This document shows positions 2,005 through 63,086 of a stretch of 64,000 nt of DNA, piece by piece. This stretch comes from Bacteroidales bacterium. GTDB taxonomy: Bacteria > Bacteroidota > Bacteroidia > Bacteroidales > VadinHA17. The notes beneath the pieces are model-generated. The model had not been told where the DNA came from. It saw only the letters and a program-made list of their open reading frames with translations, and did not search any database. Every line of letters starts with the position of its first letter. Position 1 is the stretch's first letter. Position numbers and translations under genes: made by a program. The DNA lies in the NCBI GenBank assembly GCA_003141525.1, contig PLML01000004.1:787-64786 (forward strand). Reading direction: 5' to 3'.

Positions 2005-2015
2005 CTCAATTGTTA

Positions 2016-2493: not shown

Positions 2494-2495
2494 AG
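2229..2495 (+). CDS. small GIY-YIG nuclease family protein
   Basis: YVLRSLTDFKFYVGFTSDLMQRFEAHNAG...REKYLKTFYGKMFLKNRL carries the GIY/YIG, R and E motifs of the UPF0213-like single-domain GIY-YIG proteins. The start is non-ATG (TTG) in the track. Confidence 0.85.
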   Translation: MLKDFYCTYVLRSLTDFKFYVGFTSDLMQRFEAHNAGKVPSTKNRRPFEIVYFEGCRSKEDAINREKYLKTFYGKMFLKNRLKSYLTG

Positions 2496-2696
2496 AGAAT
2501 CTCAATCTGGATCCTCAAAGGCAGATTTTGCGAATAAAGTGAGAATTTCATTGCGAGAAATGCGCGAATCAAATTATTGGTTACGAATTATAAAGGAACT
2601 TTTCCCAAAAACAGAAAATATTGTATATTTAGTTGGCGAAAGCGAAGAGCTAGGAAAAATTCTTGCTTCAATTCTAATAAAATCACGGAACTGACT

Positions 2697-2739
2697 CATT
2701 CTTTACTTTTACCTTTTTACTTTTTACTTTTTACTTTAT
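2697..2739. repeat. right arm C
   Basis: The sequence cattctttacttttacctttttactttttactttttactttatc is the reverse complement of the AAGTAAAA units. Confidence 0.75.
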
Positions 2740-2814
2740 CCCACTTTTGTCTTGTGACTTTTGTCTTTTATCTTTAACCCCACTTTTGTCTTGTGACTTT
2801 TGTCTTTTATCTTA
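2740..2814. repeat. right/outer arm A, present as a 38-bp tandem duplication
   Basis: cccacttttgtcttgtgacttttgtcttttatctt occurs twice (2740-2776 and 2778-2814). It pairs with 833-877. Confidence 0.8.
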
Positions 2815-2825
2815 AACATAATATA

Positions 2826-3608: not shown

Positions 3609-3612
3609 AAAA

Positions 3613-3668
3613 TTCTAAGTTCAAAGTTCAAAGTTCAAAGTTCAATGTTCCAAGTTCCATGTTTAAAG
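3613..3668. repeat. left arm D (CAAAGTT units)
   Basis: The sequence ttctaagttcaaagttcaaagttcaaagttcaatgttccaagttccatgtttaaag is the inverted partner of 4361-4400. Confidence 0.75.
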
Positions 3669-3837
3669 ACATATTTATATGAAGATAGAGAAGTTTGAAG
3701 ATCTGGAGATTTGGCAAGAAGCCAGGGAGTTATGCAAAAGAGTCTTTGAAATAACTTCCGTCAGTCCGTTTTGCAATGACTTTAAATTTAGGGATCAGAT
3801 CAGAGCTTCATCTGGATCAGTAATGGATAATATAGCC

Positions 3838-4127
3838 TGCCCTGTGAAATAGCAAGATGTATTATGTATATATACTTATAAGCGAAAAAGATAACATGTT
3901 TTATACAGGTTATACATCAGACCTTGAAAATCGAATAGAAGAGCATTTGAAAGGGAAAGTAAATTCTACTAGGCACAGATTGCCTTTAAAGCTTGTCTAC
4001 TATGAATGTTCTATTAATCAGGATGATGCGCTTCATAGAGAGAAATATCTTAAAAGTACGTATGGCAAACGATATATTAAGAACCGTTTAAAACATTTTC
4101 TAAATGAGTAAATATTTCACAGGGCAA
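3838..4127 (+). mobile_element. 290-bp GIY-YIG micro-element with perfect 13-bp inverted termini GCCCTGTGAAATA
   Basis: GCCCTGTGAAATA at 3839-3851 and TATTTCACAGGGC at 4113-4125. The only cargo is an 84-codon GIY-YIG ORF. Confidence 0.8.
3857..4111 (+). CDS. small GIY-YIG nuclease family protein
   Basis: [30 protein letters not shown]...[18 protein letters not shown] is a paralog of the 2229-2495 product. Confidence 0.85.
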
Positions 4128-4360
4128 GAAGGCTTCGAACGTGGTGGAAATAAAGAGTTTATCCAGTTTCTGAGTATTGCCAAGGGATCTTGTGGTGAAG
4201 TCCGTTCACAATCTTATCGATCATTTGACTATAAATATATTAACCAGGAAATTTTGGATGAACTTATTTCCAGAACAATGCAACTAAGCAAGAAAATCTC
4301 ATCACTTATAGGATATTTGAAAAATAGCGAATTTAAAGGCTCAAAATTCCATACCTCATA

Positions 4361-4400
4361 ACTTTGAACCTTGAACCTTGAACATTTAACCTTGAACCTG
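4361..4400. repeat. right arm D
   Basis: The sequence actttgaaccttgaaccttgaacatttaaccttgaacctg runs directly into the wzc start codon. Confidence 0.75.
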
Positions 4401-6838: not shown

Positions 6839-6883
6839 GGTTAAGGCCAAGTAAGGTTAAGGTTAAGGCTAAGGTTGAGAAGA
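6836..6883. repeat. left arm E (AAGGTTAAGG/GTTGAG units)
   Basis: The sequence taaggttaaggccaagtaaggttaaggttaaggctaaggttgagaag begins on the wzc stop codon. Confidence 0.8.
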
Positions 6884-6897
6884 AGAATAAATAAAAC

Positions 6898-7254
6898 ATG
6901 ATTTACATAAGTTTTACTGAAATGCCAGTTTGGCAGAAAGCACATAAGCTTGCAATTGAAGTATTTAATCTAACAATTAATCTTCCAAGGTCTGAAGATT
7001 ACGGATTGACATCCCAGATTCGTAAATCATCAAATGGAGTAGCTGCCTGTATCGCTGAAGGATTTGGAAGAAGTACTAAAAAAGACAAATCAAATTTTTA
7101 TATAATTGCACGGGGTTCCTCATTCGAAACCCAGAACCATTTATTATATAGCAACAAAGTTGGTTATTTTGAAACTCAAATTACTCAACGTCTTTTTGAT
7201 GAGTATAATGAGCTCATTTACGAGTTGAATAAACTTATTAAATCCCTGGAATAA
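6898..7254 (+). CDS. four-helix-bundle protein (23S rRNA IVS protein family), NIAEG-like subtype
   Basis: 118 aa with MPVWQKAHKLAIEVF, SSNGVAACIAEGFGRSTKKDKSNFYIIARGSSFETQ. Confidence 0.85.
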   Translation: MIYISFTEMPVWQKAHKLAIEVFNLTINLPRSEDYGLTSQIRKSSNGVAACIAEGFGRSTKKDKSNFYIIARGSSFETQNHLLYSNKVGYFETQITQRLFDEYNELIYELNKLIKSLE

Positions 7255-7278
7255 GACAGGAACTAAGGTTTATGGATT

Positions 7279-7368
7279 CTCAACCTCAACCTTAACCTCA
7301 ACCTTAGTAACCTCAGCCTCAACCTCAACCTCAACCTCAGTCTCAACCTCAACCTCAACCTTAGCCTC
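7279..7368. repeat. right arm E (CTCAACC/TTAACC units, about 90 bp)
   Basis: The sequence ctcaacctcaaccttaacctcaaccttagtaacctcagcctcaacctcaacctcaacctcagtctcaacctcaacctcaaccttagcctc is the reverse complement of arm E but longer. Confidence 0.8.
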
Positions 7369-7439
7369 ATTTTATGGTTATAACAATAAAAAGTCAACAT
7401 TTATCACTATTTTTGTGGTTATAATCTGGTAAATTAAAT

Positions 7440-8660
7440 ATGATGATCAGAAGAGATTTATATTTAAATCAGCTTTTCGGCTATATTGATAAGCCTTTTA
7501 TCAAGGTCATTACCGGCATCAGACGAAGTGGTAAGTCCGCCATTCTGATGTTACTTCGTGATGAATTGTTGAGAAAAGGGATTAATGGGATAAATGTTAT
7601 CTATATAAATTTTGAAAGTTTTGAATTTTCAGAAATAGATGACGCCGAAAAGCTTTACAAATTTGTCAAAACTAAAATTAAAACCAGGAAACGTTATTAT
7701 ATTCTACTCGACGAGATCCAGGAAGTAGGATCATGGGAAAAAGCTGTTAACTCTTTTTTAGTTGATTTCAACGCTGATATTTACATTACAGGATCCAACT
7801 CCCGGCTTTTGTCTTCGGAATTGGCCACTTATCTGGCTGGACGCTATGTTGAAATTCACCTTCATACACTGTCCTTTTCTGAATATCTTCTTTTCAAACA
7901 AATACGTCTTAATGAAGAGACTTCCGATCTGTATCGTGAATTTGGATTTTTTTTACGTCTTGGGGGATTTCCGGCTCTTAATACCGGGGAATACACTTAT
8001 GAATCTGCCTATAAGGTAGTATACGATATTTATTCATCCGCTATTCTTCGCGATACAGTACAACGATATAATATCAGGGATGTTGAACTTCTGGAACGTG
8101 TTGTCAGGTACGTGTTTGACAATATAGGTAATAAATTCTCGGCAAAAAATGTAGCAGACTATTTTAAAAGCCAGCAGCGCAAGATAGATCTTAACACTGT
8201 ATATAATTACCTCACTGCTCTTGAGGGAGCATTTATTGTGTACCGGATACCACGTTATGATGTTAAGGGTAAAGAGATACTTAAGACATTTGAAAAATTT
8301 TATACAGCTGATCAATCGTTACTGTATGCCGTTATGGGGTATAAGGAGAGGCATATTTCAGGTGTTCTTGAAAATATTGTAATGCTTGAGCTAAAACGAA
8401 GAGGGTACAATGTATTTGTTGGAAAATCGGATGACAAAGAGATTGACTTTATTGCTGAATTGAAAGGGAATAAAATTTACATTCAGGTCGCTTACAAAAT
8501 GTCGGAGCAAACTACAATTGACCGTGAGTTTGCTCCATTACATGAAATAAAAGACAACTATCCTAAATACGTGATAACAATGGATGAGACATGGCAGGAT
8601 AATATTGAAGGCGTTCAGCACATGCACATTGCTGATTTTTTACTTATGAAGGAATATTAG
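7440..8660 (+). CDS. AAA-family ATPase with DUF4143-type C-terminal domain
   Basis: 406 aa. Walker A is GIRRSGKS and Walker B-like is YILLDEIQ. The overall layout is typical of AAA_14+DUF4143 proteins. Confidence 0.7.
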   Translation: MMIRRDLYLNQLFGYIDKPFIKVITGIRRSGKSAILMLLRDELLRKGINGINVIYINFESFEFSEIDDAEKLYKFVKTKIKTRKRYYILLDEIQEVGSWEKAVNSFLVDFNADIYITGSNSRLLSSELATYLAGRYVEIHLHTLSFSEYLLFKQIRLNEETSDLYREFGFFLRLGGFPALNTGEYTYESAYKVVYDIYSSAILRDTVQRYNIRDVELLERVVRYVFDNIGNKFSAKNVADYFKSQQRKIDLNTVYNYLTALEGAFIVYRIPRYDVKGKEILKTFEKFYTADQSLLYAVMGYKERHISGVLENIVMLELKRRGYNVFVGKSDDKEIDFIAELKGNKIYIQVAYKMSEQTTIDREFAPLHEIKDNYPKYVITMDETWQDNIEGVQHMHIADFLLMKEY

Positions 8661-8688
8661 TTGCGGGTTCTGCATTCCGCATCAAAAT

Positions 8689-8874
8689 ATGAAGTGTTCG
8701 GAACTATTAAGATTACTTTTAAAAGACGGGTGGGTGGTTGTGTCAACAAAAGGGTCACATTTGAAGATGAAACACCCTGAAAAGCAAGGGATCATAATTT
8801 TCCCTGATCATGGAGCACGGGAAATGGGTAAGGGAATGGAGAAGAAAATCCGTAAAGATGCCGGTTTGAACTAG
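8689..8874 (+). CDS. hicA: HicA-family toxin
   Basis: 61 aa. LLKDGWVVVSTKGSHLKMKHPEKQGIIIFPDHG is the HicA core, including the GSH motif. Confidence 0.8.
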   Translation: MKCSELLRLLLKDGWVVVSTKGSHLKMKHPEKQGIIIFPDHGAREMGKGMEKKIRKDAGLN

Positions 8875-8886
8875 AGATAGTCAGGT

Positions 8887-9294
8887 ATGGTAACAAAAAA
8901 GAAAATAGTGGTTATAATTGAAAAGACAGATACCGGATTTTCTGCTTATTCAGAAGACTATCCGGTATTTACAACAGGAGCAACAGTGAATGAGTTGCTT
9001 GAAAATACCAATGAAGGTTTCACCCTTTACTTTGGGGATAAAAATCATGGTACGCAACAGATTTACTATGAAATAGATTTTAAGCAGTTCTTTCAATACT
9101 ATAAGGTGATAAACTCCAAAGCACTTGCTGAGAAGATCGGCATGAATCCTACTCTTTTATCTCAATATGTGAGAGGTCATAAAAGACCATCCGAGAAACA
9201 AAGCCGAAGGATTCTGTATGGTATTAACAAGATCGGACAGGAACTGGCTGAAATGAGTGTTATTTATGAAAAACAAGATAAAAGACAAAAGTAA
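8887..9294 (+). CDS. hicB: HicB-family antitoxin with C-terminal HTH
   Basis: It has a UPF0150-like N-terminus (VVIIEKTDTGFSAYSEDYPVFTTGATVNELLEN) and an XRE-like HTH (LAEKIGMNPTLLSQYVRG). It lies directly downstream of hicA. Confidence 0.75.
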   Translation: MVTKKKIVVIIEKTDTGFSAYSEDYPVFTTGATVNELLENTNEGFTLYFGDKNHGTQQIYYEIDFKQFFQYYKVINSKALAEKIGMNPTLLSQYVRGHKRPSEKQSRRILYGINKIGQELAEMSVIYEKQDKRQK

Positions 9295-9354
9295 AAAGAT
9301 AAAAGTAGGGCCGAGCGTTAAGAATTTGCCCGGTGGGCAAATTTAGCGACGGAG
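9271..9354. repeat. composite left arm (family A units plus unique segment G containing palindrome AATTTGCC-N5-GGCAAATT)
   Basis: gataaaagtagggccgagcgttaagaatttgcccggtgggcaaatttagcgacggag matches the reverse complement of 12477-12543 with only a few mismatches. Confidence 0.8.
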
Positions 9355-9367
9355 CCAGTTTGTAGCG

Positions 9368-9508
9368 ATGGAAAAGAAAAATGACCTTTGCGAAAGGCTT
9401 TTTGAATTTGCAGTAAGAGTCATTGAATTTTTGAAAACATTATCCTATTCACCTGAAAATAAAACTATTCGGACACAACTGTCAAAAAGCGCTGATTGGA
9501 TTAGTTGA
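9368..9508 (+). pseudogene. 5' fragment of a four-helix-bundle gene (GANY subtype)
   Basis: MEKKNDLCERLFEFAVRVIEFLKTLSYSPENKTIRTQLSKSA is nearly identical to the 13474 copy. It then diverges and stops (DWIS*). Confidence 0.75.
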
Positions 9509-9589
9509 AAGCGGGGTTGTGGAGAAAGTTGAAGGAAATTATTTCATATCTGATCCATTCTTTAAGAGGTTTCTTTTCCGTTACGCCTG
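9492..9589 (+). pseudogene. possible C-terminal remnant of a DUF234-type ATPase
   Basis: LIGLVESGVVEKVEGNYFISDPFFKRFLFRYA* resembles the wHTH tail (Y.I.DPF..FWF) of DUF234 ATPases. It has no N-terminal part. Confidence 0.3.
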
Positions 9590-9643
9590 ATGGCGTTACG
9601 CTTGTGGGCGTAAAAAACAACGCAATGTTAAAAAAACTTAAAA

Positions 9644-9853
9644 ATGACAAATAAAGAACAAATACAACGAGATATAGCAATTGCTTTTGATTTCGTTGAA
9701 CAAATAATAGATAACCCGGATATACTTGATAAGATACCTGATGGTACTACGATTACTTTTCTTGACTGTGAAAATGTAAAGCCGGAGAAACCTATTAGTC
9801 AAGATACTGCAAAAAAATACGTCAACGTTAAAAGGCACTTTGAAGTATTATAA
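9644..9853 (+). CDS. small hypothetical protein (69 aa)
   Basis: An ORF with a clean ATG. I do not recognise a domain with confidence. Confidence 0.35.
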   Translation: MTNKEQIQRDIAIAFDFVEQIIDNPDILDKIPDGTTITFLDCENVKPEKPISQDTAKKYVNVKRHFEVL

Positions 9854-9865
9854 AATCTATGGCAT

Positions 9866-9903
9866 AAGATTAAGGCTAAGGTTAAGGTTAAGGTTGAGAG
9901 GTT
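9866..9903. repeat. E-type left arm (second copy)
   Basis: The sequence aagattaaggctaaggttaaggttaaggttgagaggtt has its inverted partner at 11661-11697. Confidence 0.7.
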
Positions 9904-10053
9904 ACTCTACCTAAGTCATGAAAATATTTTATCTGCTAGACGCCTGACGCCAGACGCCGGACACCCCGAAGAGTTCATATGGTCGTTAAAAGATATTAAT
10001 CTTCAGGTACAAATTATTTCTTTTAGTACATTTGTTAACTAATAATTAAAAAG

Positions 10054-10221
10054 ATGGTAACAACAATAAAAAAAGGAACATCACGCGAAAAAATCCGGTT
10101 AGCCTTAAAAAAACGACAAGTAAAAATCAAAAGTCCTGATTTAAAAAAATATTGCGGTTCTATCACCCTCCTTGAGGACCCAATGAAACTACAAAAAGAA
10201 TGGCGCAATGAATGGGACTAA
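10054..10221 (+). CDS. putative antitoxin of the VapC module (55 aa, below track threshold)
   Basis: My own translation is MVTTIKKGTSREKIRLALKK...LEDPMKLQKEWRNEWD*. It overlaps the PIN gene start by 14 nt. A TACATTTG -7-like box lies at 10027-10034. Confidence 0.5.
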   Translation: MVTTIKKGTSREKIRLALKKRQVKIKSPDLKKYCGSITLLEDPMKLQKEWRNEWD

Positions 10222-10579
10222 TATCCTTCTTGATACCAATATTGTGCTTTATCTCCTTAACGGAGAAGAGACACTGATTCCTCTTTTAGATGAGAAAAAT
10301 CTTTTTCTATCATTTATAACCCAATTGGAGTTATTGGGTAACCGGCATTTAAAACCCAGCGACATCCTGAAAATTAAACAATTTATTTCTGAGTGTACAG
10401 TGATTGATATTACACCTGCTATAAAGGAATTAGTTATAAATATTCGTCAAAAATACAACATCAAGCTTCCTGACTGTATTATTATAGCAACTTCCCTTTG
10501 GCTAAATATGCCTTTAATTACAGCTGATCACGATTTTAAAAAGATTGACATAGCCGACCTGATATATTTTCAAATATAA
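10208..10579 (+). CDS. vapC: PIN-domain toxin (VapC-like)
   Basis: ILLDTNIVLYLL at the N-terminus gives the first acidic residue. It also has ITQLELL, LPDCIIIATSL and ITADHDF, the acidic quartet pattern of PIN domains. Confidence 0.8.
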   Translation: MNGTNILLDTNIVLYLLNGEETLIPLLDEKNLFLSFITQLELLGNRHLKPSDILKIKQFISECTVIDITPAIKELVINIRQKYNIKLPDCIIIATSLWLNMPLITADHDFKKIDIADLIYFQI

Positions 10580-10626
10580 CCAGGACAAAAAAGATAACTA
10601 AAAGGGCTTATTTTAGAATTCAGGCA

Positions 10627-10725
10627 CTTGAACTTTGAACCTTAAACTTTGAACTTTGAACTTTTATCTTTTTACTTTTGTCTTTTGTCTTATTCCATAC
10701 TTTTGCCTTTTTACTTTTGTCTTGA
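10627..10725. repeat. stacked orphan right arms (D-type then A-type)
   Basis: cttgaactttgaaccttaaactttgaactttgaac is followed by ttttatctttttacttttgtcttttgtcttattccatacttttgcctttttacttttgtcttga. No matching left arm lies nearby. Confidence 0.65.
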
Positions 10726-10851
10726 TAAACCCTCAACAAATGACCAATGTTGTCCAGATAACGCACCTCTCTAAGATTTACTGATTGGTGAAAATAACGA
10801 AAACAATAAAAGGGAGGGCATAATATTACCTGAAATCTTTGCGCAGTTTTA

Positions 10852-10883
10852 TTTGGCGAACAATCCCTTATACGTTAAATTTG
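10852..10883 (+). promoter_or_regulatory. candidate Bacteroidota-type promoter for the second PIN module
   Basis: TTTG at 10852-10855 and TAAATTTG at 10876-10883 with a 20-nt spacer. It lies inside the 5' extension of track ORF 10853, which argues for the Met at 10904 as the true start. Confidence 0.4.
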
Positions 10884-10903
10884 TATATAAAACTTATAAA
10901 ACG

Positions 10904-11140
10904 ATGAACACTACTTCATATAAAAGAACGTACAGTTTCCCTTTCACATTCGATGATGTATTAAAGCTGATTAAATCATTCTCAATAGAGGATAAAGTGA
11001 GATTGGAAAAGGAATTGGAAAAAGAGACACTCGTTTACCGGGCACAAAAATTGTCAGAAAAAATTAAGTCAAATGATCTCACTATTGAGGATGTAGTAGC
11101 TGAAGTTGTGGAATACAGAAAGAAACAGAATGCAAAATGA
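10904..11140 (+). CDS. putative antitoxin partner of PIN protein
   Basis: 78 aa from MNTTSYKR. It has a charged coiled C-terminus and overlaps the downstream PIN gene. Confidence 0.45.
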   Translation: MNTTSYKRTYSFPFTFDDVLKLIKSFSIEDKVRLEKELEKETLVYRAQKLSEKIKSNDLTIEDVVAEVVEYRKKQNAK

Positions 11141-11537
11141 AGTTTTCATTCTGGATAGTAACATCTGGATAAACTATGTGATCACAAAGCGACTGGACAA
11201 ATTAGTTACACGGATTTACCACCATCAATTGACGGTTCTGACAAGTCACCACCTTATTACAGAAATACAGGAGGTATTGACTCGATCAAAGTTTAAGAAA
11301 TATCTTAAACTTTCTGACATTAAAGAATTAATTGCAATACATTTAAAACTATGCCGGCTTGTGGATACTGATGAAACTACAGACCAACTTACGGACCCCA
11401 AAGATAATTTCTTGCTAAATTTATATAACACAGGAAAAGCCACCGTAATTGTGAGCGGTGATAAAGAATTTCTCCATGAGGCAAGCGAATTAAATTACCG
11501 TGTTATGACGCTTAAAGAGTTTGAGTTATCCCATTAG
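11130..11537 (+). CDS. PIN-family toxin (TIGR00305-like)
   Basis: VFILDSNIWINYV, LITEIQEVL and DPKDNFLLNLYNTGKATVIVSGDKEFL are the typical D..D..GD pattern of this PIN subfamily. The start is taken at MQNE, which overlaps the upstream stop. Confidence 0.75.
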   Translation: MQNEVFILDSNIWINYVITKRLDKLVTRIYHHQLTVLTSHHLITEIQEVLTRSKFKKYLKLSDIKELIAIHLKLCRLVDTDETTDQLTDPKDNFLLNLYNTGKATVIVSGDKEFLHEASELNYRVMTLKEFELSH

Positions 11538-11580
11538 CAGTGACCCCGAATGCTGAAAAACAGAAGCTCCCTCCTTAGAA

Positions 11581-11697
11581 TTCAAAACGAGAACCGACCC
11601 GCTTTTCACTTTCTCCTTGTTATCTTTACTTTTGTCTTGTGACTTTTGTCTTTTATCTTTATTTCAACCTCAACCTCAACCTAAACCTGAACCTCAA
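11581..11697. repeat. stacked arms: unique segment J, A-type right arm, E-type right arm
   Basis: tcaaaacgagaaccgacccgcttttcactttctc is the partner of 12225-12305. acttttgtcttgtgacttttgtcttttatctt is the A family. caacctcaacctcaacctaaacctgaacctcaag is the partner of 9866-9903. Confidence 0.65.
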
Positions 11698-11772
11698 GAA
11701 TAAGACAGGACAATTAAAGAAGTTGCCTAATAAATAAAAGTTCGTACTTTTACAAAAGAATATTTTACCATT

Positions 11773-11988
11773 ATGAAGAAAATCAAATACGTAATTTATA
11801 AAGAAGGAAAGTATTATGTTTCACAATGTTTAAATGTGGACATATCCAGTTTTGGTACCACCATTGATGAGGCAAGTGCCAACTTGAAAGAAGCTTTACA
11901 ATTATATTTTGAAGATGATAAAAGTCATTGGGATTATTTACCAATTTCAGAAGCTTTAATTGGGGAAACTCAGCTTAATTTGAGATGA
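11773..11988 (+). CDS. short HicB-like antitoxin
   Basis: 71 aa. YVIYKEGKYYVSQCLNVDISSFGTTIDEASANLKEALQLYFED matches the UPF0150/HicB N-domain pattern. Confidence 0.6.
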   Translation: MKKIKYVIYKEGKYYVSQCLNVDISSFGTTIDEASANLKEALQLYFEDDKSHWDYLPISEALIGETQLNLR

Positions 11989-12123
11989 CAAAACTGTAAT
12001 TGTTCCTTGCCCTGTGAAATAGCACAAAGCCCCCGCCCTGGCCATATTTCACAGGGCCGGCACCCCGGAAGGAAATCCCTATTGGTACTTTTCGTTCAAT
12101 AATAAGACAATCAGGATTAAACC
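11985..12123 (+). pseudogene. decayed HicA-like toxin gene
   Basis: It starts MTKL and then hits a stop. After the 49-bp insert is mentally removed, the same frame reads FVPSAPRKEIPIGTFRSIIRQSGL, a HicA C-terminal motif. The central dsRBD-like part is missing and the 3' end appears frameshifted. Confidence 0.45.
12010..12058. mobile_element. 49-bp miniature derivative of the 3838-4127 element
   Basis: GCCCTGTGAAATAGCA...ATATTTCACAGGGC has termini identical to the 290-bp element, with only about 20 nt between them. Confidence 0.7.
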
Positions 12124-12379
12124 AAAATGATTTTGTTTGAGAAAAAGATGGTTAGTTTATACAGGAATCTACATTTTATACCTCGAAAAACACGAAACGC
12201 CCAGGGAATTAGAAAAATGATAAAAAGTGAAAGAGAAAAAAAGTTTCTCGATTTTCATTTGACTTCGTCGAGCTCGTCCCGCTAAAGCGGGACTCGGTTC
12301 ACGTTTAAGAAAGCTCTTAGCCCTGTGCCACTAAACGATAATCTCAAAACACTTAATACGAAACGTGTTAAATTTTTTA

Positions 12380-12543
12380 ACTTTTGTCTTTTTCCTTTCT
12401 CCTTTTGCCTTTTGCCTTGATTCTACTTTTATCTTGTGACTTTTGTCTTTTGTCTTGATCCACCCCTGCATGCTGTCCCCTTCGCTAAATTTGCCTACCA
12501 GGCAAATTTTTAACGCTCGGTCCTGTCTTTTATCTTTATAGAG
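12380..12543. repeat. composite right arms (long A-type, then G', then short A')
   Basis: cttttgtctttttcctttctccttttgccttttgccttgattctacttttatcttgtgacttttgtcttttgtcttga is followed by ccttcgctaaatttgcctaccaggcaaatttttaacgctcggtcctgtcttttatcttt. It ends one nt before the wzm ATG. Confidence 0.8.
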
Positions 12544-13410
12544 ATGAATTCCAATTCTGAAAAATCACATACAATAATATATGAGCCCAACCAGCGATTG
12601 AAAATAGGTTGGGTAAAAACCTGGATAATACTTGTTCGAAACATTGTTCATAGCTGGGATTTGATTTATCAGCTATTTCGAAGAGATTTTTTAATGAGCT
12701 ATAAGAAATCATTTATTGGTGCGGGCTGGATTTTTATTTCTCCATTATTAGGGGTTGTCTCATGGGTATTTTATAATTCTACTGGTATCCTTAAGCCAGG
12801 TGATGTAGGAATCCCCTATCCTGCCTATGTTTTGTTAAGTACCTCAATTTATGGCTTGTTTGGTGGATTTTTTACCTCAGCCAGCGGGACCTTAACTGCC
12901 GGTTCTGGTTTTATAACCCAGGTAAATTATCCCCACGATGCCTTACTGATAAAGCAGGCTATGCTTCAGCTTGCGAATTTTGCAATTGTGTTTTTCATTA
13001 ATATTATCGTTTTGTTTTCCTTTAGGGTAGTTCCTAGTTTATATATATTCTTATTGCCATTATTGATTCTTCCCATCTTTTTCATTGGCTCGGCAATAGG
13101 TTTGTTTGCCTCTGTCATTGAAGTAGTTGCCTCTGATATAAACAAAGTAATTACTTTTATGATTGGCTTATTATTGTTTATTACACCAGTCATATATTCA
13201 TCAAAAGTGCAGAACCCCTTTCTGCAGAAAATGATCAAATGGAATCCATTAACCTATCTTATTGGAGGTGCAAGAGATATGATCATATACGGAAAGATGG
13301 AACACCTTGACACATATTTTATTTGCGCCGGAGTATCATTCCTGCTTTTTCTATTTTCCTGGCGCATTTTTTACATTACCGAACAACGGGTAATTGAAAA
13401 GATGATTTAA
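12544..13410 (+). CDS. wzm: ABC-2 type polysaccharide exporter permease (Wzm)
   Basis: 288 aa with six predicted TM stretches. The N-terminal LIYQLFRRDFLMSYKKSFIGAGW is typical of ABC-2/Wzm permeases. Confidence 0.85.
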   Translation: MNSNSEKSHTIIYEPNQRLKIGWVKTWIILVRNIVHSWDLIYQLFRRDFLMSYKKSFIGAGWIFISPLLGVVSWVFYNSTGILKPGDVGIPYPAYVLLSTSIYGLFGGFFTSASGTLTAGSGFITQVNYPHDALLIKQAMLQLANFAIVFFINIIVLFSFRVVPSLYIFLLPLLILPIFFIGSAIGLFASVIEVVASDINKVITFMIGLLLFITPVIYSSKVQNPFLQKMIKWNPLTYLIGGARDMIIYGKMEHLDTYFICAGVSFLLFLFSWRIFYITEQRVIEKMI

Positions 13411-13441
13411 ATGCTAAACAATAAACGCGAAAGGTAAGATC

Positions 13442-13478
13442 TAAAGATAAAAGACAAAAGTCACAAGATAAAAGTGGA
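13442..13478. repeat. left arm A (third copy)
   Basis: taaagataaaagacaaaagtcacaagataaaagtgg is the exact reverse-complement style of the 32-bp ACTTTTGTCTTGTGACTTTTGTCTTTT motif. Confidence 0.8.
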
Positions 13479-13951
13479 AGAAAAGAAAAATGATTTGTGC
13501 GAGAGACTCTTTGAGTTTGCAGTAAGAGTAATTGAATTTTTAAAAACACTACCTTATTCCCCAGAAAATAAAACTATTCGTACGCAATTATCAAAAAGTG
13601 CTTGTTCGTCAGGAGCTAATTACTCGCCCTGTCAAATTGCATCAAATTGTTAAAAGATTTTTATTTTATATATGTTTTAAGGAGTTTAACTGATTTCAAA
13701 TTCTATGTTGGTTTTACATCAGATTTGATGCAAAGATTTGACAGGGTGAAGAGTCTCAAAGCGGTTCATCCAAGGCAGACTTTTCTAACAAAGTCAGGAT
13801 TTCCCTTCGTGAAATGAGAGAATCAAATTATTGGCTCAGAATAATTATAAGAACTGTTAAAGAAGTTAATGGGCCAGAACTCGACTACCTTATAAAAGAA
13901 TCAGGAGAACTCAAAAACATCCTTGGCTCTATAGTCCAAAAAACCAGATAA
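13474..13951 (+). pseudogene. four-helix-bundle gene (GANY subtype) interrupted by a 124-bp miniature element
   Basis: The 5' half reads (V/M)EEKKNDLCERLFEFAVRVIEFLKTLPYSPENKTIRTQLSKSACSSGANY (to 13623). The 3' half reads EESQSGSSKADFSNKVRISLREMRESNYWLRII... (13748-13951). Removing 124 nt restores the frame. Confidence 0.85.
13624..13747. mobile_element. 124-bp non-autonomous (MITE-like) derivative of the 2206-2493 element
   Basis: The termini are CCCTGTCAAAT (13627-13637) and ATTTGACAGGG (13736-13746). The interior equals the first ~115 nt of the full element, including the 5' part of the GIY-YIG ORF, with 6 mismatches by my count. Confidence 0.8.
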
Positions 13952-13956
13952 TCAAC

Positions 13957-13999
13957 CTCTTTTTACTTTTGTCTTGTGACTTTTGTCTTTTGTCTTTGA
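13957..13999. repeat. right arm A
   Basis: The sequence ctctttttacttttgtcttgtgacttttgtcttttgtctttga. Confidence 0.8.
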
Positions 14000-14052
14000 T
14001 CATTAAACCCTCAACGCCTCAACAAATAAACACATCAACCATTACCCACTAC

Positions 14053-57705: not shown

Positions 57706-59529
57706 ATGTGCGGAATCTGCGGAATCATTAACCTGAACAAACAACCTGTAGATGAGTCAAAGCTTCATCTTATGATGAGGACTATGAAGCATCGCGGCCC
57801 TGATGATGAAGGTGTGTTTGCTAAAGATTACATAGGACTTGGTTTCGTAAGGTTAAGCATTCTTGATCTGTCCTCTGCCGGTCATCAACCGATGGTTTCA
57901 AAAGATGGGCGATATGTTATTGTATTGAATGGAGAGATATTCAACTATATTGAACTCAGAGAGGAGCTGAAAGATTTTTATCTATTCACCAGCAACTCCG
58001 ATACTGAAGTGTTGCTGGCTTCTTATATGAAATGGAGGGAACACTGTTTAGACAGACTAAATGGCATGTTCGCTTTTGCCATTTTAGATACTACCACAAA
58101 CGAATTCTTTGCAGCAAGAGACCGTTTCGGAATCAAACCCTTTTACTATTATCAGGATCAAAATCAGTTTATATTTGCTTCTGACATTCCTCCGATACTC
58201 AAGATCGTAGAGCATAAAAGGGAACCTGAAAATTCAGTTATCTTTGATTACCTTGTTTTTAACCGCACCAATCACAGCGGGAAAACATTTTTCAGAAGCA
58301 TACAAAAACTTCAGCATGGGCATACTCTGAAAGTTAAATCGGGATTAGTCAATATAAGTCGCTGGTATAATTTACCTGATCAGATTTCTCAATATAAATC
58401 CTTTCGGTTTAATGAAAAGGATTTCCTCGAAGAATTTAAGAATTCCATAAATCTTCAGTTAAGAAGCGATGTGCCGGTAGGTACATGCCTGAGTGGCGGA
58501 TTGGATTCTTCAGCAATAACCTCACTTGTGCTGAATAATAAGCAGGATGTTGATTTACACTCATTTTCGGCTGTCTACCAGAAGGGCCAGAAAGGTGATG
58601 AATCGGAATACATTGCTGAATTCAAAGAGAAAAATCTTAAGATCCATTATACCTTTCCATCCGATAATACATTGCTGGAAGATTTAAATAATTTCATTAT
58701 GTCCTTGTCAGAACCTGTTCCAACGACCTCAATTTATGCGGAATATAAGGTGATGGAGCTGGCGAAAAATCATTGTACTGTACTTTTAAATGGTCAGGGA
58801 GCCGATGAATTATTGGCTGGCTATCATTATTTTTACGGATACTATTTCAGAGATCTTGTCAATAGTAATTCCTGGGGAAAGTTTTTGAATGAATTATTTC
58901 AATACATAAGAACACAAAGATCGGTTTATGGTCTTAAAACATTAGTCTTTTCGATTAATCCACGCTCTTTAAGACACTTTAAAAAGCATGATTTCCTGGA
59001 TCAGGCATTTTATAATAATTTTTACAATAAAAGTAATTCCCTGCTTGATGATTTTTATAAATCAAAAAGCCTGAAAGAATTTTTAATAAATCATTTTGAA
59101 TATAAGTTTGAGCATAATTTGTTATGGGCAGATAAAACAGGAATGCAGTTTTCTTTAGAAACCCGATTCCCGTTTCTGGACCATAATCTGGTAGAAAAAA
59201 CATTATCCATCCCAACAGAAAATTATATCAAAAATGGATACACTAAGGTGATAATGAGAAATGCACTAAAAGGAATATTACCGGAAAAGATCAGGATGAG
59301 AAAAGATAAAGTAGGTTTTTCCACACCTGAATCAGATTGGTTTAAAAATAGGAAACTTCAGGCTATTCTCGAAGATGTCATTGAATCTGACTCATTTAAA
59401 GGAAGGGGTTATTTTGATGTTAAACAATGTAAAAAAGAATTTAAATCGTTTCAGAATTATCATAAATACAATCCGGAATTTTGGAAATGGATAAATCTGG
59501 AACTATGGTTCAGAACTTTTATTGATTAG
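57706..59529 (+). CDS. asnB: asparagine synthase (glutamine-hydrolysing) family amidotransferase
   Basis: MCGICGI is the Ntn nucleophile and LSGGLDSS is the PP-loop. Length 607 aa. Confidence 0.9.
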   Translation: MCGICGIINLNKQPVDESKLHLMMRTMKHRGPDDEGVFAKDYIGLGFVRLSILDLSSAGHQPMVSKDGRYVIVLNGEIFNYIELREELKDFYLFTSNSDTEVLLASYMKWREHCLDRLNGMFAFAILDTTTNEFFAARDRFGIKPFYYYQDQNQFIFASDIPPILKIVEHKREPENSVIFDYLVFNRTNHSGKTFFRSIQKLQHGHTLKVKSGLVNISRWYNLPDQISQYKSFRFNEKDFLEEFKNSINLQLRSDVPVGTCLSGGLDSSAITSLVLNNKQDVDLHSFSAVYQKGQKGDESEYIAEFKEKNLKIHYTFPSDNTLLEDLNNFIMSLSEPVPTTSIYAEYKVMELAKNHCTVLLNGQGADELLAGYHYFYGYYFRDLVNSNSWGKFLNELFQYIRTQRSVYGLKTLVFSINPRSLRHFKKHDFLDQAFYNNFYNKSNSLLDDFYKSKSLKEFLINHFEYKFEHNLLWADKTGMQFSLETRFPFLDHNLVEKTLSIPTENYIKNGYTKVIMRNALKGILPEKIRMRKDKVGFSTPESDWFKNRKLQAILEDVIESDSFKGRGYFDVKQCKKEFKSFQNYHKYNPEFWKWINLELWFRTFID

Positions 59530-59540
59530 GGAAGAAGTTA

Positions 59541-59604
59541 ATAAAGTACTTAAAGTACTTAAAGTGAGCTAAAGTAAATAGTGCTTAGAGTGAGTTAAAG
59601 TTAA
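59541..59604. repeat. left arm H (AAAGTACTT/AAAGTGAG units)
   Basis: The sequence ataaagtacttaaagtacttaaagtgagctaaagtaaatagtgcttagagtgagttaaagttaa. Confidence 0.75.
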
Positions 59605-59625
59605 TTATATTTAAAGTTTAGAGAA

Positions 59626-59985
59626 ATGGATAATAAAGAGTTTGGCAGGCAGCTAGAAAACAGAACAAAAAAGTTTGCAATTTGTGTTATAAGATTATCC
59701 GCGGCTTTACCAAATACTACGGAAGGGAAAGTCATTAGGAATCAATTTACAAAATCCGGAACAAGCATAGGAGCAAACTATAGAGAAGCTAACAGAGCCA
59801 GAAGCAAAGCAGATTTCTTTAGTAAAATAAAAATATGTGAAAGTGAGTCAAGTGAGACAGCGTACTGGTTAGAGATAATCCATGAGTTAAACTGGGTTGA
59901 AAACAACAAAACTGAAGAACTTCTTGCCGAAGCAAATGAACTGCTTGCAATTTTTACCTCAGCAGGTAAAACTTTAAAACTTTAA
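59626..59985 (+). CDS. four-helix-bundle protein (23S rRNA IVS protein family), GANYRE subtype, intact
   Basis: FAICVIRLSAALP and SGTSIGANYREANRARSKADFFSKIKICESESSETAYWLEII. This shows the uninterrupted target motif. Confidence 0.85.
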   Translation: MDNKEFGRQLENRTKKFAICVIRLSAALPNTTEGKVIRNQFTKSGTSIGANYREANRARSKADFFSKIKICESESSETAYWLEIIHELNWVENNKTEELLAEANELLAIFTSAGKTLKL

Positions 59986-60010
59986 GTACTTTAGTCACTC
60001 TAGTCACTTC
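59971..60010. repeat. right arm H
   Basis: The sequence actttaaaactttaagtactttagtcactctagtcacttc overlaps the last codons of the gene. Confidence 0.75.
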
Positions 60011-60015
60011 CTTTT

Positions 60016-60627
60016 ATGATCACTATTATTGATTACGGAATGGGCAACCTGAAGTCTGTTAAGAGAAAGATGGACAGAATAGGAGTAAAATCAATAATTT
60101 CATCGGATCCGGAAGAGATAAAAAAAAGTGATAGAATAATTTTACCCGGAGTTGGTCACTTTGCCAGAGCTGTTTCAGAAATTAAAAAGAGAGGATTATG
60201 GGATCTGCTTACGGAGCAGGTTTTAATGGAAAAGAAGTTAGTTCTAGGTATTTGTCTTGGCATGCAATTAATGGCAAAACACAGTGAAGAAGGCGATGCA
60301 GAGGGATTTGGATGGATCGATGCAAATGTCATAAGATTTAAAGTCTCTGATATAACAAAATACAAAGTCCCGCATATGGGTTGGAATACGATAATGCCGG
60401 TTAGAGATTCTTCATTATTTGAAAAGATAACTTTGGATTCAGAATTCTATTTCGTTCATAGCTATCATGTAAAATGCAATAATCCGGATGATATTTTAGC
60501 CGAAACTAACTATGACTTTTCTTTTACTTCTGTGTTTCAAACAGAAAACATTTTTGGCGTACAATTCCATCCTGAAAAAAGCCATGATGCCGGGGAAATG
60601 CTATTGAGAAATTTTGTTAATTTGTGA
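60016..60627 (+). CDS. HisH-like glutamine amidotransferase (LPS-locus paralog, WbuY-type)
   Basis: IIDYGMGNL, GICLGMQL (catalytic Cys) and FGVQFHPEKS. Confidence 0.85.
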   Translation: MITIIDYGMGNLKSVKRKMDRIGVKSIISSDPEEIKKSDRIILPGVGHFARAVSEIKKRGLWDLLTEQVLMEKKLVLGICLGMQLMAKHSEEGDAEGFGWIDANVIRFKVSDITKYKVPHMGWNTIMPVRDSSLFEKITLDSEFYFVHSYHVKCNNPDDILAETNYDFSFTSVFQTENIFGVQFHPEKSHDAGEMLLRNFVNL

Positions 60628-60659
60628 ATGGTGATTTGTAACTAGTAATTGGTAACTGG
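60628..60659. repeat. arm I-left (GGTGATT/AATTGGTAA units)
   Basis: The sequence atggtgatttgtaactagtaattggtaactgg starts on the base after the hisH-like stop. Confidence 0.75.
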
Positions 60660-60720
60660 TTTCCCTTAATAATATTCACTCTTTCATTAAAAATTTCTCT
60701 TTTAAAAAATAAAGGTTTTG

Positions 60721-60786
60721 TCGCCAATCACTAATTACCAATTACTATTCACCAATTACTATTCACTAATCACAAATCACTAAAGT
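60721..60786. repeat. arm I-right, copy 1
   Basis: tcgccaatcactaattaccaattactattcaccaattactattcactaatcacaaatcactaaag is the reverse-complement match to 60628-60659, with an internal 14-nt duplication. Confidence 0.75.
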
Positions 60787-60787
60787 T

Positions 60788-61141
60788 ATGAAAACCCATA
60801 AAGATTTAGACGTTTGGAATTATTCAATTGATCTTGTTACGGAATTATATCAAATTACTGCTAAATTCCCAAAAGAAGAAACCTATGGTTTATCTTCGCA
60901 GATGAGAAGAGCTGCAGTTTCAATACCTTCAAATATTGCAGAAGGGGCAGCACGAAATCACAAAAATGAATTTCGCCAGTTTCTTTATATTTCCCTTTCA
61001 AGCGCCGCTGAACTTGAAACTCAACTTATTATTTCAGAAAGACTTTCATATATCTCAAAAAACCAAAATGAAAATCTTATTGATAAACTTAACACTATAT
61101 CCCGAATGCTCCAGGGTCTAATCAAATCAATAAATCACTAA
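60788..61141 (+). CDS. four-helix-bundle protein (23S rRNA IVS protein family), NIAEG subtype, intact
   Basis: DLDVWNYSIDLV, RRAAVSIPSNIAEGAARNHKNEFRQFLYISLSSAAELETQL. Confidence 0.9.
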   Translation: MKTHKDLDVWNYSIDLVTELYQITAKFPKEETYGLSSQMRRAAVSIPSNIAEGAARNHKNEFRQFLYISLSSAAELETQLIISERLSYISKNQNENLIDKLNTISRMLQGLIKSINH

Positions 61142-61167
61142 TCACCAATCACCAATCACCAATCACC
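61133..61167. repeat. arm I-right, copy 2
   Basis: The sequence aatcactaatcaccaatcaccaatcaccaatcacc ends 3 nt before the hisF-like ATG. Confidence 0.75.
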
Positions 61168-61170
61168 GTA

Positions 61171-61941
61171 ATGTATCGTCCCCGCATTATCCCGGTTTTA
61201 TTATTACAAAAAAAAGGGTTAGTTAAGTCGGTTAATTTTAAAAACCACCGCTATATTGGAGATCCTATTAATGCTGTAAGGATTTTTAATGATTTAAAGG
61301 CTGATGAGTTGGTTTTTATTGATATACTTGCAACAAAAGAAAATCGAACAATTTCAGTTGATTTTGTTAAAAATGTTGGGGAAGAGGCTAATATGCCGTT
61401 TTCGGCGGGAGGCGGTATCAGGTCTCTTGAAGATATCAGAAAAATAATTGAAGCCGGAGCAGAAAAAGTGATATTAAACTCCATCGCCGGAGAAAATCCG
61501 GGTTTTGTTAAAGAAGCAGCTGATGCATTTGGATCATCCACCATTACAGTTTGTATCGATGTTAAAAAAGATTTTTTGGGGAAAGAGAAAGTTTGGATTA
61601 AGGCTGGCTCAAAATCTTTAGCTTCAAATCCTGTCCAATATGCAAGGTACATGGAGGATAGAGGCGCTGGAGAGCTGATTATTCAATCCATTGAGCGCGA
61701 TGGCACAATGGACGGTTATGACATCAATTTAATAAAGAAAGTTGCTGAATCAGTCACTATCCCGGTTGTTTCCCTTGGAGGAGCCGGTAAATGGGAACAT
61801 ATTATTGAACTTAATTCTTTAGTTTCATTAAACGGACTTGCTGCGGGCAGCCTGTTTATTTATCATGGAGAACGCAACGCGATTTTAGTTAACTACCCGG
61901 AAAAAGAATCAATACTACAGCTATTTAAAAAAAGCTCCTGA
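61171..61941 (+). CDS. HisF-like cyclase subunit (LPS-locus paralog, WbuZ-type)
   Basis: RIIPVLLL, ADELVFIDI and FSAGGGIRS are TIM-barrel HisF motifs. Confidence 0.85.
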   Translation: MYRPRIIPVLLLQKKGLVKSVNFKNHRYIGDPINAVRIFNDLKADELVFIDILATKENRTISVDFVKNVGEEANMPFSAGGGIRSLEDIRKIIEAGAEKVILNSIAGENPGFVKEAADAFGSSTITVCIDVKKDFLGKEKVWIKAGSKSLASNPVQYARYMEDRGAGELIIQSIERDGTMDGYDINLIKKVAESVTIPVVSLGGAGKWEHIIELNSLVSLNGLAAGSLFIYHGERNAILVNYPEKESILQLFKKSS

Positions 61942-63086
61942 TGAAACAGAGATGTGTTATAGGTTTATGGGACGAAACTGTTCCCGGGATAAAGTTTGAT
62001 GAAAAAGGAGTATCAAACTATGCAAAGATGTTTCTGAAATTTATAGAACTCTATCCCCGTGGAGAAAAAGGTTTAGCAGAGTGGGAAGAATGGTTAAAAA
62101 GGATAAAAAGGGATGGAAAGAATAAGAAATATGATTGCATTGTTGGTGTTAGCGGAGGAACTGATAGCTGCTATTTGTTGTATTTAGCAAAAAAGTATGG
62201 ACTCAGACCATTGGCAGTTAATTTAGACAATGGTTTCAGCAGCAAGACTGCAGTAGAAAATATAAAAAAAGTTACAAATGCTTTAAAAATTGACCTTGAA
62301 ACTTTTGTAATAGACTATGAGGAAGTAAAAGCGGTTCTCAGAGCATATATAAAAGCTTCTTTACCCTGGATTGACGGACCGACTGATCTCGCAATTAAAG
62401 CGGCTTTATATCAGGTAGCCGACAGAGAAAGAGTAAAATATATTTTTAACGGGAGCGATTTCAGAACTGAAGGTAAACAGCCGACAGAATGGACCTATTC
62501 TGATGCCAGGCAATTATTGTATCTCCTTAAAAAATTTGAAAAAATAAAACTTAATTCTTTCCCTTACTATACGATCATCCAGTTTATAAGATTTGGATAT
62601 TTGAAAAAAATTAAGATGTTGCGTCCTTACTACTATTTAGATTATGAAAAAAGAAAGGCCCAGGAATTCCTTAAAAATGAATATGGGTGGGAGTATTATG
62701 GCGGCCACCATCATGAGAACATATTTACCAGGTTTGCAATATCATATTGGTTACCTCAAAAGTTTGGTATTGATAAGAGAGTAATAACCCTTTCAGCGCT
62801 GGTGATGAATGACGAAATATCAAGAGACCAGGCTTTGGATGAATTGAAACAAGATCCATACAATGCAGGTGAAATGCAATATGATAAAGAGTATGTATTG
62901 AAAAAACTGGAAATGACAAATGAGGAATTTGAGGAGTGTTTTTCAAAACCTAATAAATATTATTATGATTATCCTTCTTATATGAAATTGTTAAAAACAT
63001 TCAATAAATTATCAATATCAGGTATTAAGAAAATACTGCCCTTCACACCATCCATTTTTATTGAAAGTCAAAACAGAGTGGATTAA
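61941..63086 (+). CDS. N-acetyl sugar amidotransferase (PP-loop ATPase, WbuX/TIGR03573-like)
   Basis: The N-terminal C-rich start is followed by IVGVSGGTDSCYLLYL (PP-loop SGGxDS). It is coupled to the HisH/HisF paralogs. Confidence 0.8.
   Translation: MKQRCVIGLWDETVPGIKFDEKGVSNYAKMFLKFIELYPRGEKGLAEWEEWLKRIKRDGKNKKYDCIVGVSGGTDSCYLLYLAKKYGLRPLAVNLDNGFSSKTAVENIKKVTNALKIDLETFVIDYEEVKAVLRAYIKASLPWIDGPTDLAIKAALYQVADRERVKYIFNGSDFRTEGKQPTEWTYSDARQLLYLLKKFEKIKLNSFPYYTIIQFIRFGYLKKIKMLRPYYYLDYEKRKAQEFLKNEYGWEYYGGHHHENIFTRFAISYWLPQKFGIDKRVITLSALVMNDEISRDQALDELKQDPYNAGEMQYDKEYVLKKLEMTNEEFEECFSKPNKYYYDYPSYMKLLKTFNKLSISGIKKILPFTPSIFIESQNRVD

Follow-up and report, generated by a model that had tools for sequence, protein, structure and literature searches.

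Four-helix-bundle gene cassettes with inverted tandem-motif arms at operon junctions of a Bacteroidales polysaccharide locus

Two small gene cassettes, H and I, were analysed in 64,000 nucleotides (nt) of DNA from a Bacteroidales bacterium (GenBank assembly GCA_003141525.1, contig PLML01000004.1, positions 787 to 64,786), hereafter called the window. Both are inserted in the sense orientation into a tight asnB-hisH-hisF-wbuX operon, where each occupies the exact interval from one gene's stop codon to the next gene's start codon. Each carries a four-helix-bundle (FHB) gene of the PF05635 family within inverted arms of short tandem motifs. On balance, they are probably promoterless mobile cassettes that resemble the intervening sequences (IVS) of 23S rRNA and would be looped out of the operon transcript. 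Cassette I has a third arm, in which the original prediction saw a possible structural switch. The third arm is inherited and represents a structural variant that belongs to cassette turnover, not a balanced switch.

The window has a G+C content of 32% with all genes on the + strand, and Pfam scans identified it as a single large polysaccharide-biosynthesis locus. The four host genes asnB, hisH, hisF and wbuX are located near its right end. The asnB|hisH spacer is 486 nt and the hisH|hisF spacer 543 nt, and each is occupied by an FHB gene. As predicted, the 543-nt cassette I fills its gap exactly, from the end of the hisH stop codon (60627) to the hisF ATG (61171), and cassette H fills the 486-nt gap with arms from about 59534 to 60010. 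The asnB stop codon lies 4 nt upstream of the H left arm. The H right arm overlaps the stop codon of its FHB gene (FHB-H) and ends 5 nt upstream of the hisH ATG. Positions 59300-61500 were reproduced without differences by contigs of three independent peat metagenome runs, and an assembly artefact was rejected on this ground. The Rfam scan of 59300-61400 gave no rRNA and no other family; the only hit, RAGATH-12 at 19 bits against a gathering score of 75, was noise.

The hisH|hisF junction was surveyed by a scan with the HisF2 protein, with one genome per species. The scan gave 73 loci, and 63 of them had usable hisH and hisF ends. In 46 of these, at most 40 nt separate the two genes, which agrees with the earlier claim that they are normally contiguous. 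In L052, a peat 'fen' genome bin with 86% HisF identity, both junctions are empty, with the arrangement asnB-13 nt-hisH-7 nt-hisF. Its sequence ...aatttaTAAtcaATGTATCG... is the empty form of ...aatttgTGA(543 nt)ATGTATCG... in the window. Six other loci are also filled at hisH|hisF, five with an FHB gene (L001, L011, L033, L040, and L047) and one with a decayed FHB gene (L024). All six inserts are flush, reaching from stop codon to ATG, and their arms vary by locus (GTAATTG-type, AGAAGTTAGAG-type, GATTGAAG-type, and CATCAATCGCCAAT-type).

L001 has a decayed ortholog of cassette H at asnB|hisH and a different cassette at hisH|hisF. The latter cassette is 86% identical in nucleotides to window positions 9271-9492, which are situated at another junction, while the flanking hisH and hisF genes of L001 are only 72% and 75% identical to the window genes. 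Since the cassette is more alike than the host genes, it came after the divergence of the host genes. These results demonstrated insertion, recurrence at junctions, and mobility. No empty-site or excised allele was found at hisH|hisF in 8 peat DNA runs, where only gene-less hairpins with similar arms were detected.

Other inserts were observed at these junctions. In L040 (2555-4003, hisH|hisF), the arms enclose HEPN and nucleotidyltransferase genes (PF05168, PF18765) together with the FHB gene. At the same junction, L006 (3074-4003) appears, from a reading of its sequence, to contain a nucleotidyltransferase and HEPN-type pair and no FHB gene; on the downstream side of the pair are a right arm and a left arm that belong to different families. 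L004 and L019 have an insert of about 0.9-1.0 kb at hisH|hisF, of the size of an open reading frame (ORF) and methyltransferase-like by appearance. In the I-like cassette of the Draconibacterium genome bin L011, the FHB gene is separated from the right arm by an additional insert (1400-1620) of about 230 nt, which is richer in G+C and has visibly self-complementary stretches. The hisH|hisF spacers of L016 (830-1118), L012 (3889-4003), and L026 (3828-4003) have one-sided tandem arrays and no FHB gene: G-rich AAGTGACAGAA and GGGTATAGG after the hisH stop codon, or (ATAACTC)n up to the hisF ATG. These arrays obey the same polarity rule as the full cassettes. In L074, only a remnant of the H left arm is present at asnB|hisH (1440-1540), and a G/C-rich palindrome (CCCTTCCCAGCCTTCCCCCACGGGGGAAGG...CCCCCTTGGGGGAAA) replaces the FHB gene.

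FHB-H and FHB-I could be clearly placed by profile scores in the PF05635/TIGR02436 family of FHB proteins, which was first known from IVS of 23S rRNA. FHB-H scored 70.2 bits with PF05635 (cut-off 33.8) and 91.7 bits with TIGR02436 (cut-off 24). FHB-I scored 141.5 and 134.8 bits, respectively, both above the curated cut-offs. One member of the family, XCC0516 (PDB 2GSC), has a solved structure and is a homopentamer. Residues 2-113 of FHB-I match it with E = 8.7e-25, by sequence homology alone. The family comprises thousands of copies, with, to our knowledge, no known function outside diversity-generating retroelements (DGRs). L074 is an orthologous hisH|cassette I|hisF locus, and its FHB protein has 92% amino acid (aa) identity with FHB-I. 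The nonsynonymous (dN) and synonymous (dS) divergences between the two genes were 0.049 and 0.50. The resulting dN/dS of 0.10 indicates purifying selection on FHB-I and, for that reason, a functional FHB protein. The orthologous copy of FHB-H in L001 has decayed.

The architecture of the family was investigated in loci obtained by a metagenome scan with FHB-I. The scan gave 80 loci, of which 65 had 200-nt flanks on both sides; with cassette I of the window, the set comprised 66 relatives. Flanking repeats were tested by local reverse-complement alignment, with the 95th percentile of cross-locus pairings as the threshold. RNAduplex calculation on whole 220-nt flanks was dropped, as the energies were huge and meaningless, and self and cross-locus values overlapped. 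Inverted repeats above the threshold flanked the FHB gene in 49 of the 66 relatives. In the arm-versus-arm matrix, left arms paired best with their own right arm, motif families excepted: own-arm scores were 47-65, and scores between motif families were 7-25.

The neighbouring genes were co-oriented in about 90% of cases (upstream 55/61, downstream 56/64). The upstream stop codon was in or at the left arm, at a median of -4 nt from the arm start, and the median distance from the end of the right arm to the next ATG was 17 nt. Of 48 cassettes, 46 had an excess of G over C in the 5' arm (p = 8e-12). The base totals were 633 G and 140 C in left arms, and 152 G and 653 C in right arms. Among the features of the family, this strand polarity, with G prevailing in 5' arms and C in 3' arms, stands out most. 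Among the clearly periodic arms of relatives, the period was mostly 7 or 14 nt, and only 1 of 28 had a period divisible by three; the D arms (6 nt) and H arms (9 nt) of the window are exceptions. The cassettes are a widespread class that colonises gene junctions, with complementary arms, co-orientation with the neighbouring genes, strand polarity, and registration on stop and start codons. The G-rich left arm, rich in stop codons, and the G-poor right arm, free of start codons, would fit a translational constraint. Relatives of FHB-I with flanking tandem-motif inverted repeats were also observed in IMG/VR viral contigs (L162-L167). The cultivable species Flavobacterium columnare likewise has an FHB gene at a junction, that of gmk and nadD, where the spacers measure about 35 nt (PMC5524665).

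In cassette H, the arms enclose FHB-H, as the terminal inverted repeats of IVS enclose their ORF. The left arm consists of two sub-blocks, either of which can pair with the right arm, giving two registers. Complementarity was 81% over 32 nt or 90% over 21 nt. The duplex energy of the two arms was -33.7 kcal/mol, compared with -17.1 +/- 3.7 kcal/mol for shuffled right arms, and 0 of 1599 window segments paired with the left arm as well as the right arm did.

Cassette I has one left arm (L) and two right arms (R1 and R2), as described in the original prediction, and the order L, loop, R1, gene, R2 is shared with L074. The predicted coordinates were confirmed. The heptamer array of the left arm (GTGAATG GTGATTT GTAACTA GTAATTG GTAACTG), placed from 60628 in the prediction, in fact begins at 60624, and its first unit supplies the hisH stop codon. 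Pairing of L extends 16 nt into hisH. The loop between L and R1 could be aligned with that of L074 only in part. R1 ends 1 nt upstream of the FHB-I ATG. R2 shares bases with the FHB-I stop codon and extends to 61167, which leaves 3 nt up to the hisF ATG, as had been predicted for the last arm.

L and R1 are complementary over 41-51 nt at 73-80%. The duplex of L (60612-60661) with R1 (60729-60777) had an energy of -38.4 kcal/mol, compared with -18.6 +/- 3.6 kcal/mol for shuffled right arms, and R1 was the best partner of L in the whole 64-kb window. L and R2 are complementary over 30 nt at 77%. Their duplex had an energy of -23.6 kcal/mol, compared with -17.2 +/- 3.2 kcal/mol for shuffles, and more than 15 unrelated window segments paired better. 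The enclosing pair L-R2 of cassette I is thus weak in the window (-23.6 kcal/mol) and strong in L074 (-45.6 kcal/mol), where the homologous R2 is 77 nt longer. R2 was regarded as a real arm because it is a direct repeat of R1 (85% identity), its reverse-complement alignment with L at the DNA level scored 33 against 27 for the 95th percentile of the cross-locus control, and it is homologous to the longer R2 of L074. The features of both cassettes and of the host genes are shown in Table 1.

Table 1. Positions of the host genes and of the cassette H and I features in the window.
Feature	Position	Strand	Evidence
asnB-like glutamine-dependent amidotransferase	57706..59529	+	TIGR01536, 441 bits
Cassette H left arm, G-rich 9-nt-period array (AGTACTTAA / AGTGAGCTA ...)	59534..59604	+	inverted repeats I5, I10, I17; direct repeats D2, D6
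FHB-H, four-helix-bundle gene, 119 aa, reading frame intact	59626..59985	+	PF05635, TIGR02436
Cassette H right arm, C-rich	59975..60010	+	inverted repeats, duplex energy
hisH-like (WbuY-type) glutaminase subunit	60016..60627	+	TIGR01855, 244 bits
Cassette I left arm (L)	60612..60661	+	inverted repeats, duplex energy
A+T-rich loop of about 60 nt between L and R1	60662..60720	+	no promoter motif, no ORF
Right arm 1 (R1), C-rich array, 14-nt (2 x 7) period	60721..60787	+	direct repeat D1, dominant hairpin with L
FHB-I, four-helix-bundle gene, 117 aa	60788..61141	+	PF05635 141 bits, NF008911 151 bits
Right arm 2 (R2), (AATCACC)n, 7-nt period	61133..61167	+	direct repeat D1 with R1
AglZ/HisF2/WbuZ cyclase-like subunit (hisF)	61171..61941	+	NF038364, 330 bits
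WbuX N-acetyl sugar amidotransferase	61941..63086	+	TIGR03573, 227 bits

Arm-to-arm joins were observed in metagenome contigs of four runs (X3, X11, X13, and X16). In these contigs, H left is joined to H right with about 32 nt between them (59575/59978-59987), and L is joined directly to R1 without the 64-nt loop (60661/60726). Because the matching sides are short (22-24 nt), the joins probably represent gene-less mini-hairpins at other loci with similar arms.

Signals of transcription were searched inside cassettes H and I. Neither a Bacteroidetes-type promoter motif (TAnnTTTG) on the + strand nor an intrinsic terminator was found in either cassette. A sigma-70 scan gave 11 sites, with 8.2 +/- 2.6 expected. 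One metatranscriptome contig is unbroken from asnB through cassette H into hisH, with DNA carry-over in the library being possible. Assembled metatranscriptome contigs end at 60639-60644 and 61146-61176; these ends lie inside repeats and are not readable as processing sites.

In the favoured explanation, each cassette would be a compact promoterless PF05635 gene within cassette-specific inverted arms of short tandem motifs and would depend on read-through transcription from the host operon. The arms would pair in the read-through transcript, so that the stop codon of the preceding gene and the start codon of the following gene meet at the stem base while the passenger gene is looped out. By analogy with IVS, looping-out may limit polar damage to the host operon, either through RNase III cutting or through translational coupling that is kept. 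In cassette I, the extra C-rich arm copy R1 upstream of the gene would capture L in a local hairpin. This hairpin would place the hisH stop codon beside the FHB-I start codon, because R1 ends so close to the ATG, and serial translational coupling from hisH to FHB-I to hisF could follow. The eroded R2 would then be left as an unstructured, C/A-rich leader for hisF.

Several results weigh against this explanation. No Pfam match to a recombinase or integrase, a reverse transcriptase, or a transposase was found among ORFs of at least 100 aa in the 64-kb window, in which nine ORFs had no Pfam match. Mismatches between arms showed no wobble bias of the + strand (98 G:T, 124 A:C, and 144 transversions). 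No pair-by-pair covariation was found between the arms of the window and L074, a comparison of two sequences; this test is of little meaning, because the arms keep pairing by register shift. As wobble bias and pair-level covariation were both absent, arm complementarity may be kept by DNA-level copying or concerted evolution rather than by selection on an RNA helix.

The cassettes could accordingly be read as DNA-level elements. The arms would then form hairpins in single-stranded DNA, or cruciforms, that are used by recombination or by replication slippage to insert, copy, and delete cassettes, with RNA pairing being incidental. The lack of an excess of G:U over A:C mismatches fits this reading, as does pairing that is kept only in bulk through register shifts. 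Arm length changes by whole repeat blocks, as in the 77-nt difference in R2 between the orthologs. Gene-less hairpins with H-type arms and the loop-less L-R1 form occur in the same metagenomes, many solo arms are present at 0.8-14 kb, and the direct repeats R1 and R2 flank the gene as recombination into an arm predicts. However, the arms have no common sequence that one recombinase could recognise, and no recombinase gene was found in the window. The G-to-C polarity, the co-orientation, and the registration of arms on stop and start codons indicate transcript or translation constraints. A purely DNA-level element was therefore considered rather unlikely, and looping-out from the transcript was retained as the favoured explanation.

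The three-arm state was then judged against a regulated two-state RNA switch, in which the FHB gene would be enclosed by L-R2 or left outside by L-R1. The two pairings of L are geometrically exclusive, as the original prediction held. The possible switch that it built on them was not supported, as only one pairing is plausible in the window, the outcome that the prediction itself had named as refuting it: L-R1 has -38.4 kcal/mol, and L-R2, with -23.6 kcal/mol, is at the background level. The two helices are thus not of comparable energy. Folding, by which the prediction had proposed to compare the two helices, favoured L-R1 by 19 kcal/mol. The minimum-free-energy fold of the window uses L-R1 and leaves R2 unpaired, and the whole-region fold became less stable by 19 kcal/mol (window) and 17 kcal/mol (L074) when R1 was forbidden. 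During transcription, L-R1 would also form first.

The changes between the window and L074 were examined pair by pair. Of the 10 changed pairs in L-R1, 1 was compensatory, 2 were one-sided, and 7 were broken; in L-R2, 1 was compensatory, 1 one-sided, and 9 broken. Neither helix was supported by covariation, and compensatory changes that keep both helices were not found in the two sequences compared. Pairing is maintained by slippage of register, since each arm is an array of motifs complementary to those of the other. Extra arms were present in only 3 of the 66 relatives (the window, L074, and independently L077), and the I-like cassettes at hisH|hisF in L011 and L024 have two arms. In favour of a switch, the three-arm layout is kept in L074 with isolated duplexes of similar energy (L-R1 -47.5 and L-R2 -45.6 kcal/mol), L077 is a second, independent multi-arm case, and a ribosome terminating at the hisH stop codon inside L could transiently melt L-R1. 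On this evidence, a regulated switch is improbable. The three-arm state is common to the ortholog L074 and is thus inherited, as a variant of cassette turnover. It may have originated by recombination into an arm or by loss of the gene of a neighbouring cassette. Alternative pairings arise generically where arms consist of repeated motifs, as in the two registers of the H arms and the many copies of the AAAGACAAAAG arm family, and multi-arm situations are otherwise common as debris.

That the FHB genes serve the host as ordinary accessory members of its polysaccharide pathway, with the repeats as mRNA-stabilising intergenic stem-loops, would suit the purifying selection on FHB-I and the co-transcription of FHB genes with the operon, but it is very hard to reconcile with the cassette-free state of most orthologous operons, the unrelated FHB cassettes at the same junction in different genomes, the pseudogene decay in L001, L024, and L077, and the FHB genes at unrelated junctions of the window (wza|wzc, wzc|AAA ATPase, and wzm|wzt), some of them split by GIY-YIG genes, and it was regarded as highly improbable.

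A broader reading of the looped-out cassettes is put forward tentatively. FHB cassettes might represent mobile promoterless 'junction cassettes' that invade stop/start junctions of operons and have so far not been recognised as a class; the classic ORF-bearing 23S rRNA IVS would be no more than their best-known special case. The arms would loop the cassette out so that host genes stay expressed, other cargo would be possible (such as the HEPN/nucleotidyltransferase toxin-antitoxin pair of L040), the cassettes would be targets of GIY-YIG homing-type elements, and the FHB protein, which is related to the reverse-transcriptase cofactor Avd, could mediate spread or arm maintenance. If this general reading is true, the origin of rRNA IVS, a long-standing puzzle, becomes a special case of a broader cassette found mostly in mRNA operons, and the FHB family gains a testable context. 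The flush arms that juxtapose stop and start codons suggest a simple route for a selfish gene into a translationally coupled operon without polar damage, and such arms might serve as an insulating part in synthetic operons. Where subunit genes of Bacteroidota polysaccharide loci are unexpectedly separated by 0.4-0.6 kb, the gaps could be explained and masked in annotation. The broader phenomenon is of more interest than the three arms, which are a curiosity of cassette turnover and not a regulator that has been demonstrated.

The cassettes were compared with known systems. The ORF-bearing 23S rRNA IVS of Leptospira and Coxiella burnetii have the same passenger family (PF05635/S23p), a size of about 0.4-0.5 kb, and terminal inverted repeats that form a long stem looping the ORF out of the host transcript. 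They are regarded as selfish and horizontally acquired, as are the present cassettes. In C. burnetii, the IVS contains an S23p ORF, its terminal stem measures 28 bp, and RNase III cuts it (PMC4990558). RNase III excision is a feature of 23S rRNA IVS, and in the cassettes both RNase III cutting and translational coupling are suggested by analogy. In contrast to IVS, the cassettes lie between protein-coding genes (asnB, hisH, and hisF) and not in an rRNA helix, and they have cassette-specific tandem-motif arms with a fixed G-rich to C-rich polarity.

Integron gene cassettes are likewise promoterless, compact, co-oriented, and of one gene each; their palindromic site (attC) also varies in sequence between cassettes, and they also occur in arrays. 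Unlike integrons, the present cassettes have palindrome halves on both sides of the gene instead of one 3' attC and are scattered over operon junctions instead of one platform, and no IntI integrase or attI site was found within 64 kb. Avd, the accessory protein of DGRs, has a homologous four-helix-bundle fold, and FHB-I matches bAvd (PF22296). The scores were below the cut-offs (37 bits against 40 for PF22296, and 37 bits against 80 for NF033474). With these scores and no reverse transcriptase in the window, identity with DGR Avd was rejected.

Correia/NEMIS and ERIC-type elements are small inverted-repeat elements between co-transcribed genes and form mRNA hairpins that can be processed by RNases. 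They are gene-less, and their terminal repeats are conserved across all copies. The cassettes differ from them in that the arms differ per cassette family and a selected protein gene is carried. Terminal repeats conserved in all copies, as in miniature inverted-repeat transposable elements, were not found, given the scores of 47-65 for own arms and 7-25 between families. STRR repeats are intergenic heptamer tandem repeats. TAACTGA heptamer arrays have been described as intergenic repeats in cyanobacteria, Beggiatoaceae, and some Bacteroidetes, with no gene link described (PMC4679880). The cassette arms are similar to heptamer arrays: they are intergenic, consist of head-to-tail units with a 7-nt period (14 nt in R1 and 7 nt in R2), are oriented to the downstream gene, often end at the start codon, and contain stop triplets. 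Heptamer arrays are direct repeats of one motif, whereas in the cassettes complementary arrays bracket an FHB gene and the motif varies per cassette. In the open-access literature, neither the presence of FHB cassettes at operon junctions nor their tandem-motif arms and arm polarity were found to be described; the nearest paper was that on the TAACTGA arrays.

Six more FHB cassettes or fragments were observed at 700-14000 of the window, at junctions of polysaccharide-export genes: before and after a mazF-type gene, at wza|wzc, at wzc|AAA_14 ATPase, after a hicAB-like pair, and at wzm|wzt. Their arms differ, with types CAGAGCG, AAGTAAA, AAGTTCA, TAAGGT, and AAAGACAAAAG. Of the AAAGACAAAAG arm family, at least 9 copies are present within 0.8-14 kb, 3 of the left type and at least 6 of the right type. 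Genes for MazF, HicA/HicB-like, and PIN proteins cluster in the same 700-14000 region. No FHB cassette was found in the core of the locus at 15-57 kb.

GIY-YIG nuclease genes (PF01541, 60 and 61.5 bits) at 2229-2495 and 3857-4111 lie inside the FHB genes B (2062-2694) and C (3679-4361), at or near the conserved (A/S)N(Y/I)..EG motif. A separate short inverted repeat bounds each GIY-YIG element (CCCTGTCAAAT.../...TTTGACAGGG and CCCTGTGAAATA/TATTTCACAGGG). Cassette F (about 13640-13745) contains a miniature copy of the element of about 110 nt, with the same ends and without the gene. The GIY-YIG element looks like a homing-type element that targets FHB genes; nothing was found in the open-access literature on GIY-YIG elements in FHB genes.

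A long-range inverted repeat (9307-9372/12459-12524; 66 nt, 82%) and AAAGACAAAAG-type arms (9270-9308/12410-12457) bracket about 3.1 kb. Besides several small ORFs, this region contains two PIN-domain genes (10208-10579 and 11106-11537) and a truncated FHB gene (9368-9508), and it looks like a composite cassette with toxin-antitoxin cargo. Solo right-type arms without an adjoining gene were observed at 2728-2813, 10628-10723, and 11625-11700. They include families placed back to back (GAACTTT then CTTTTGTCTT; CTTTTGTCTT then CAACCT) and are probably scars of lost or rearranged cassettes.

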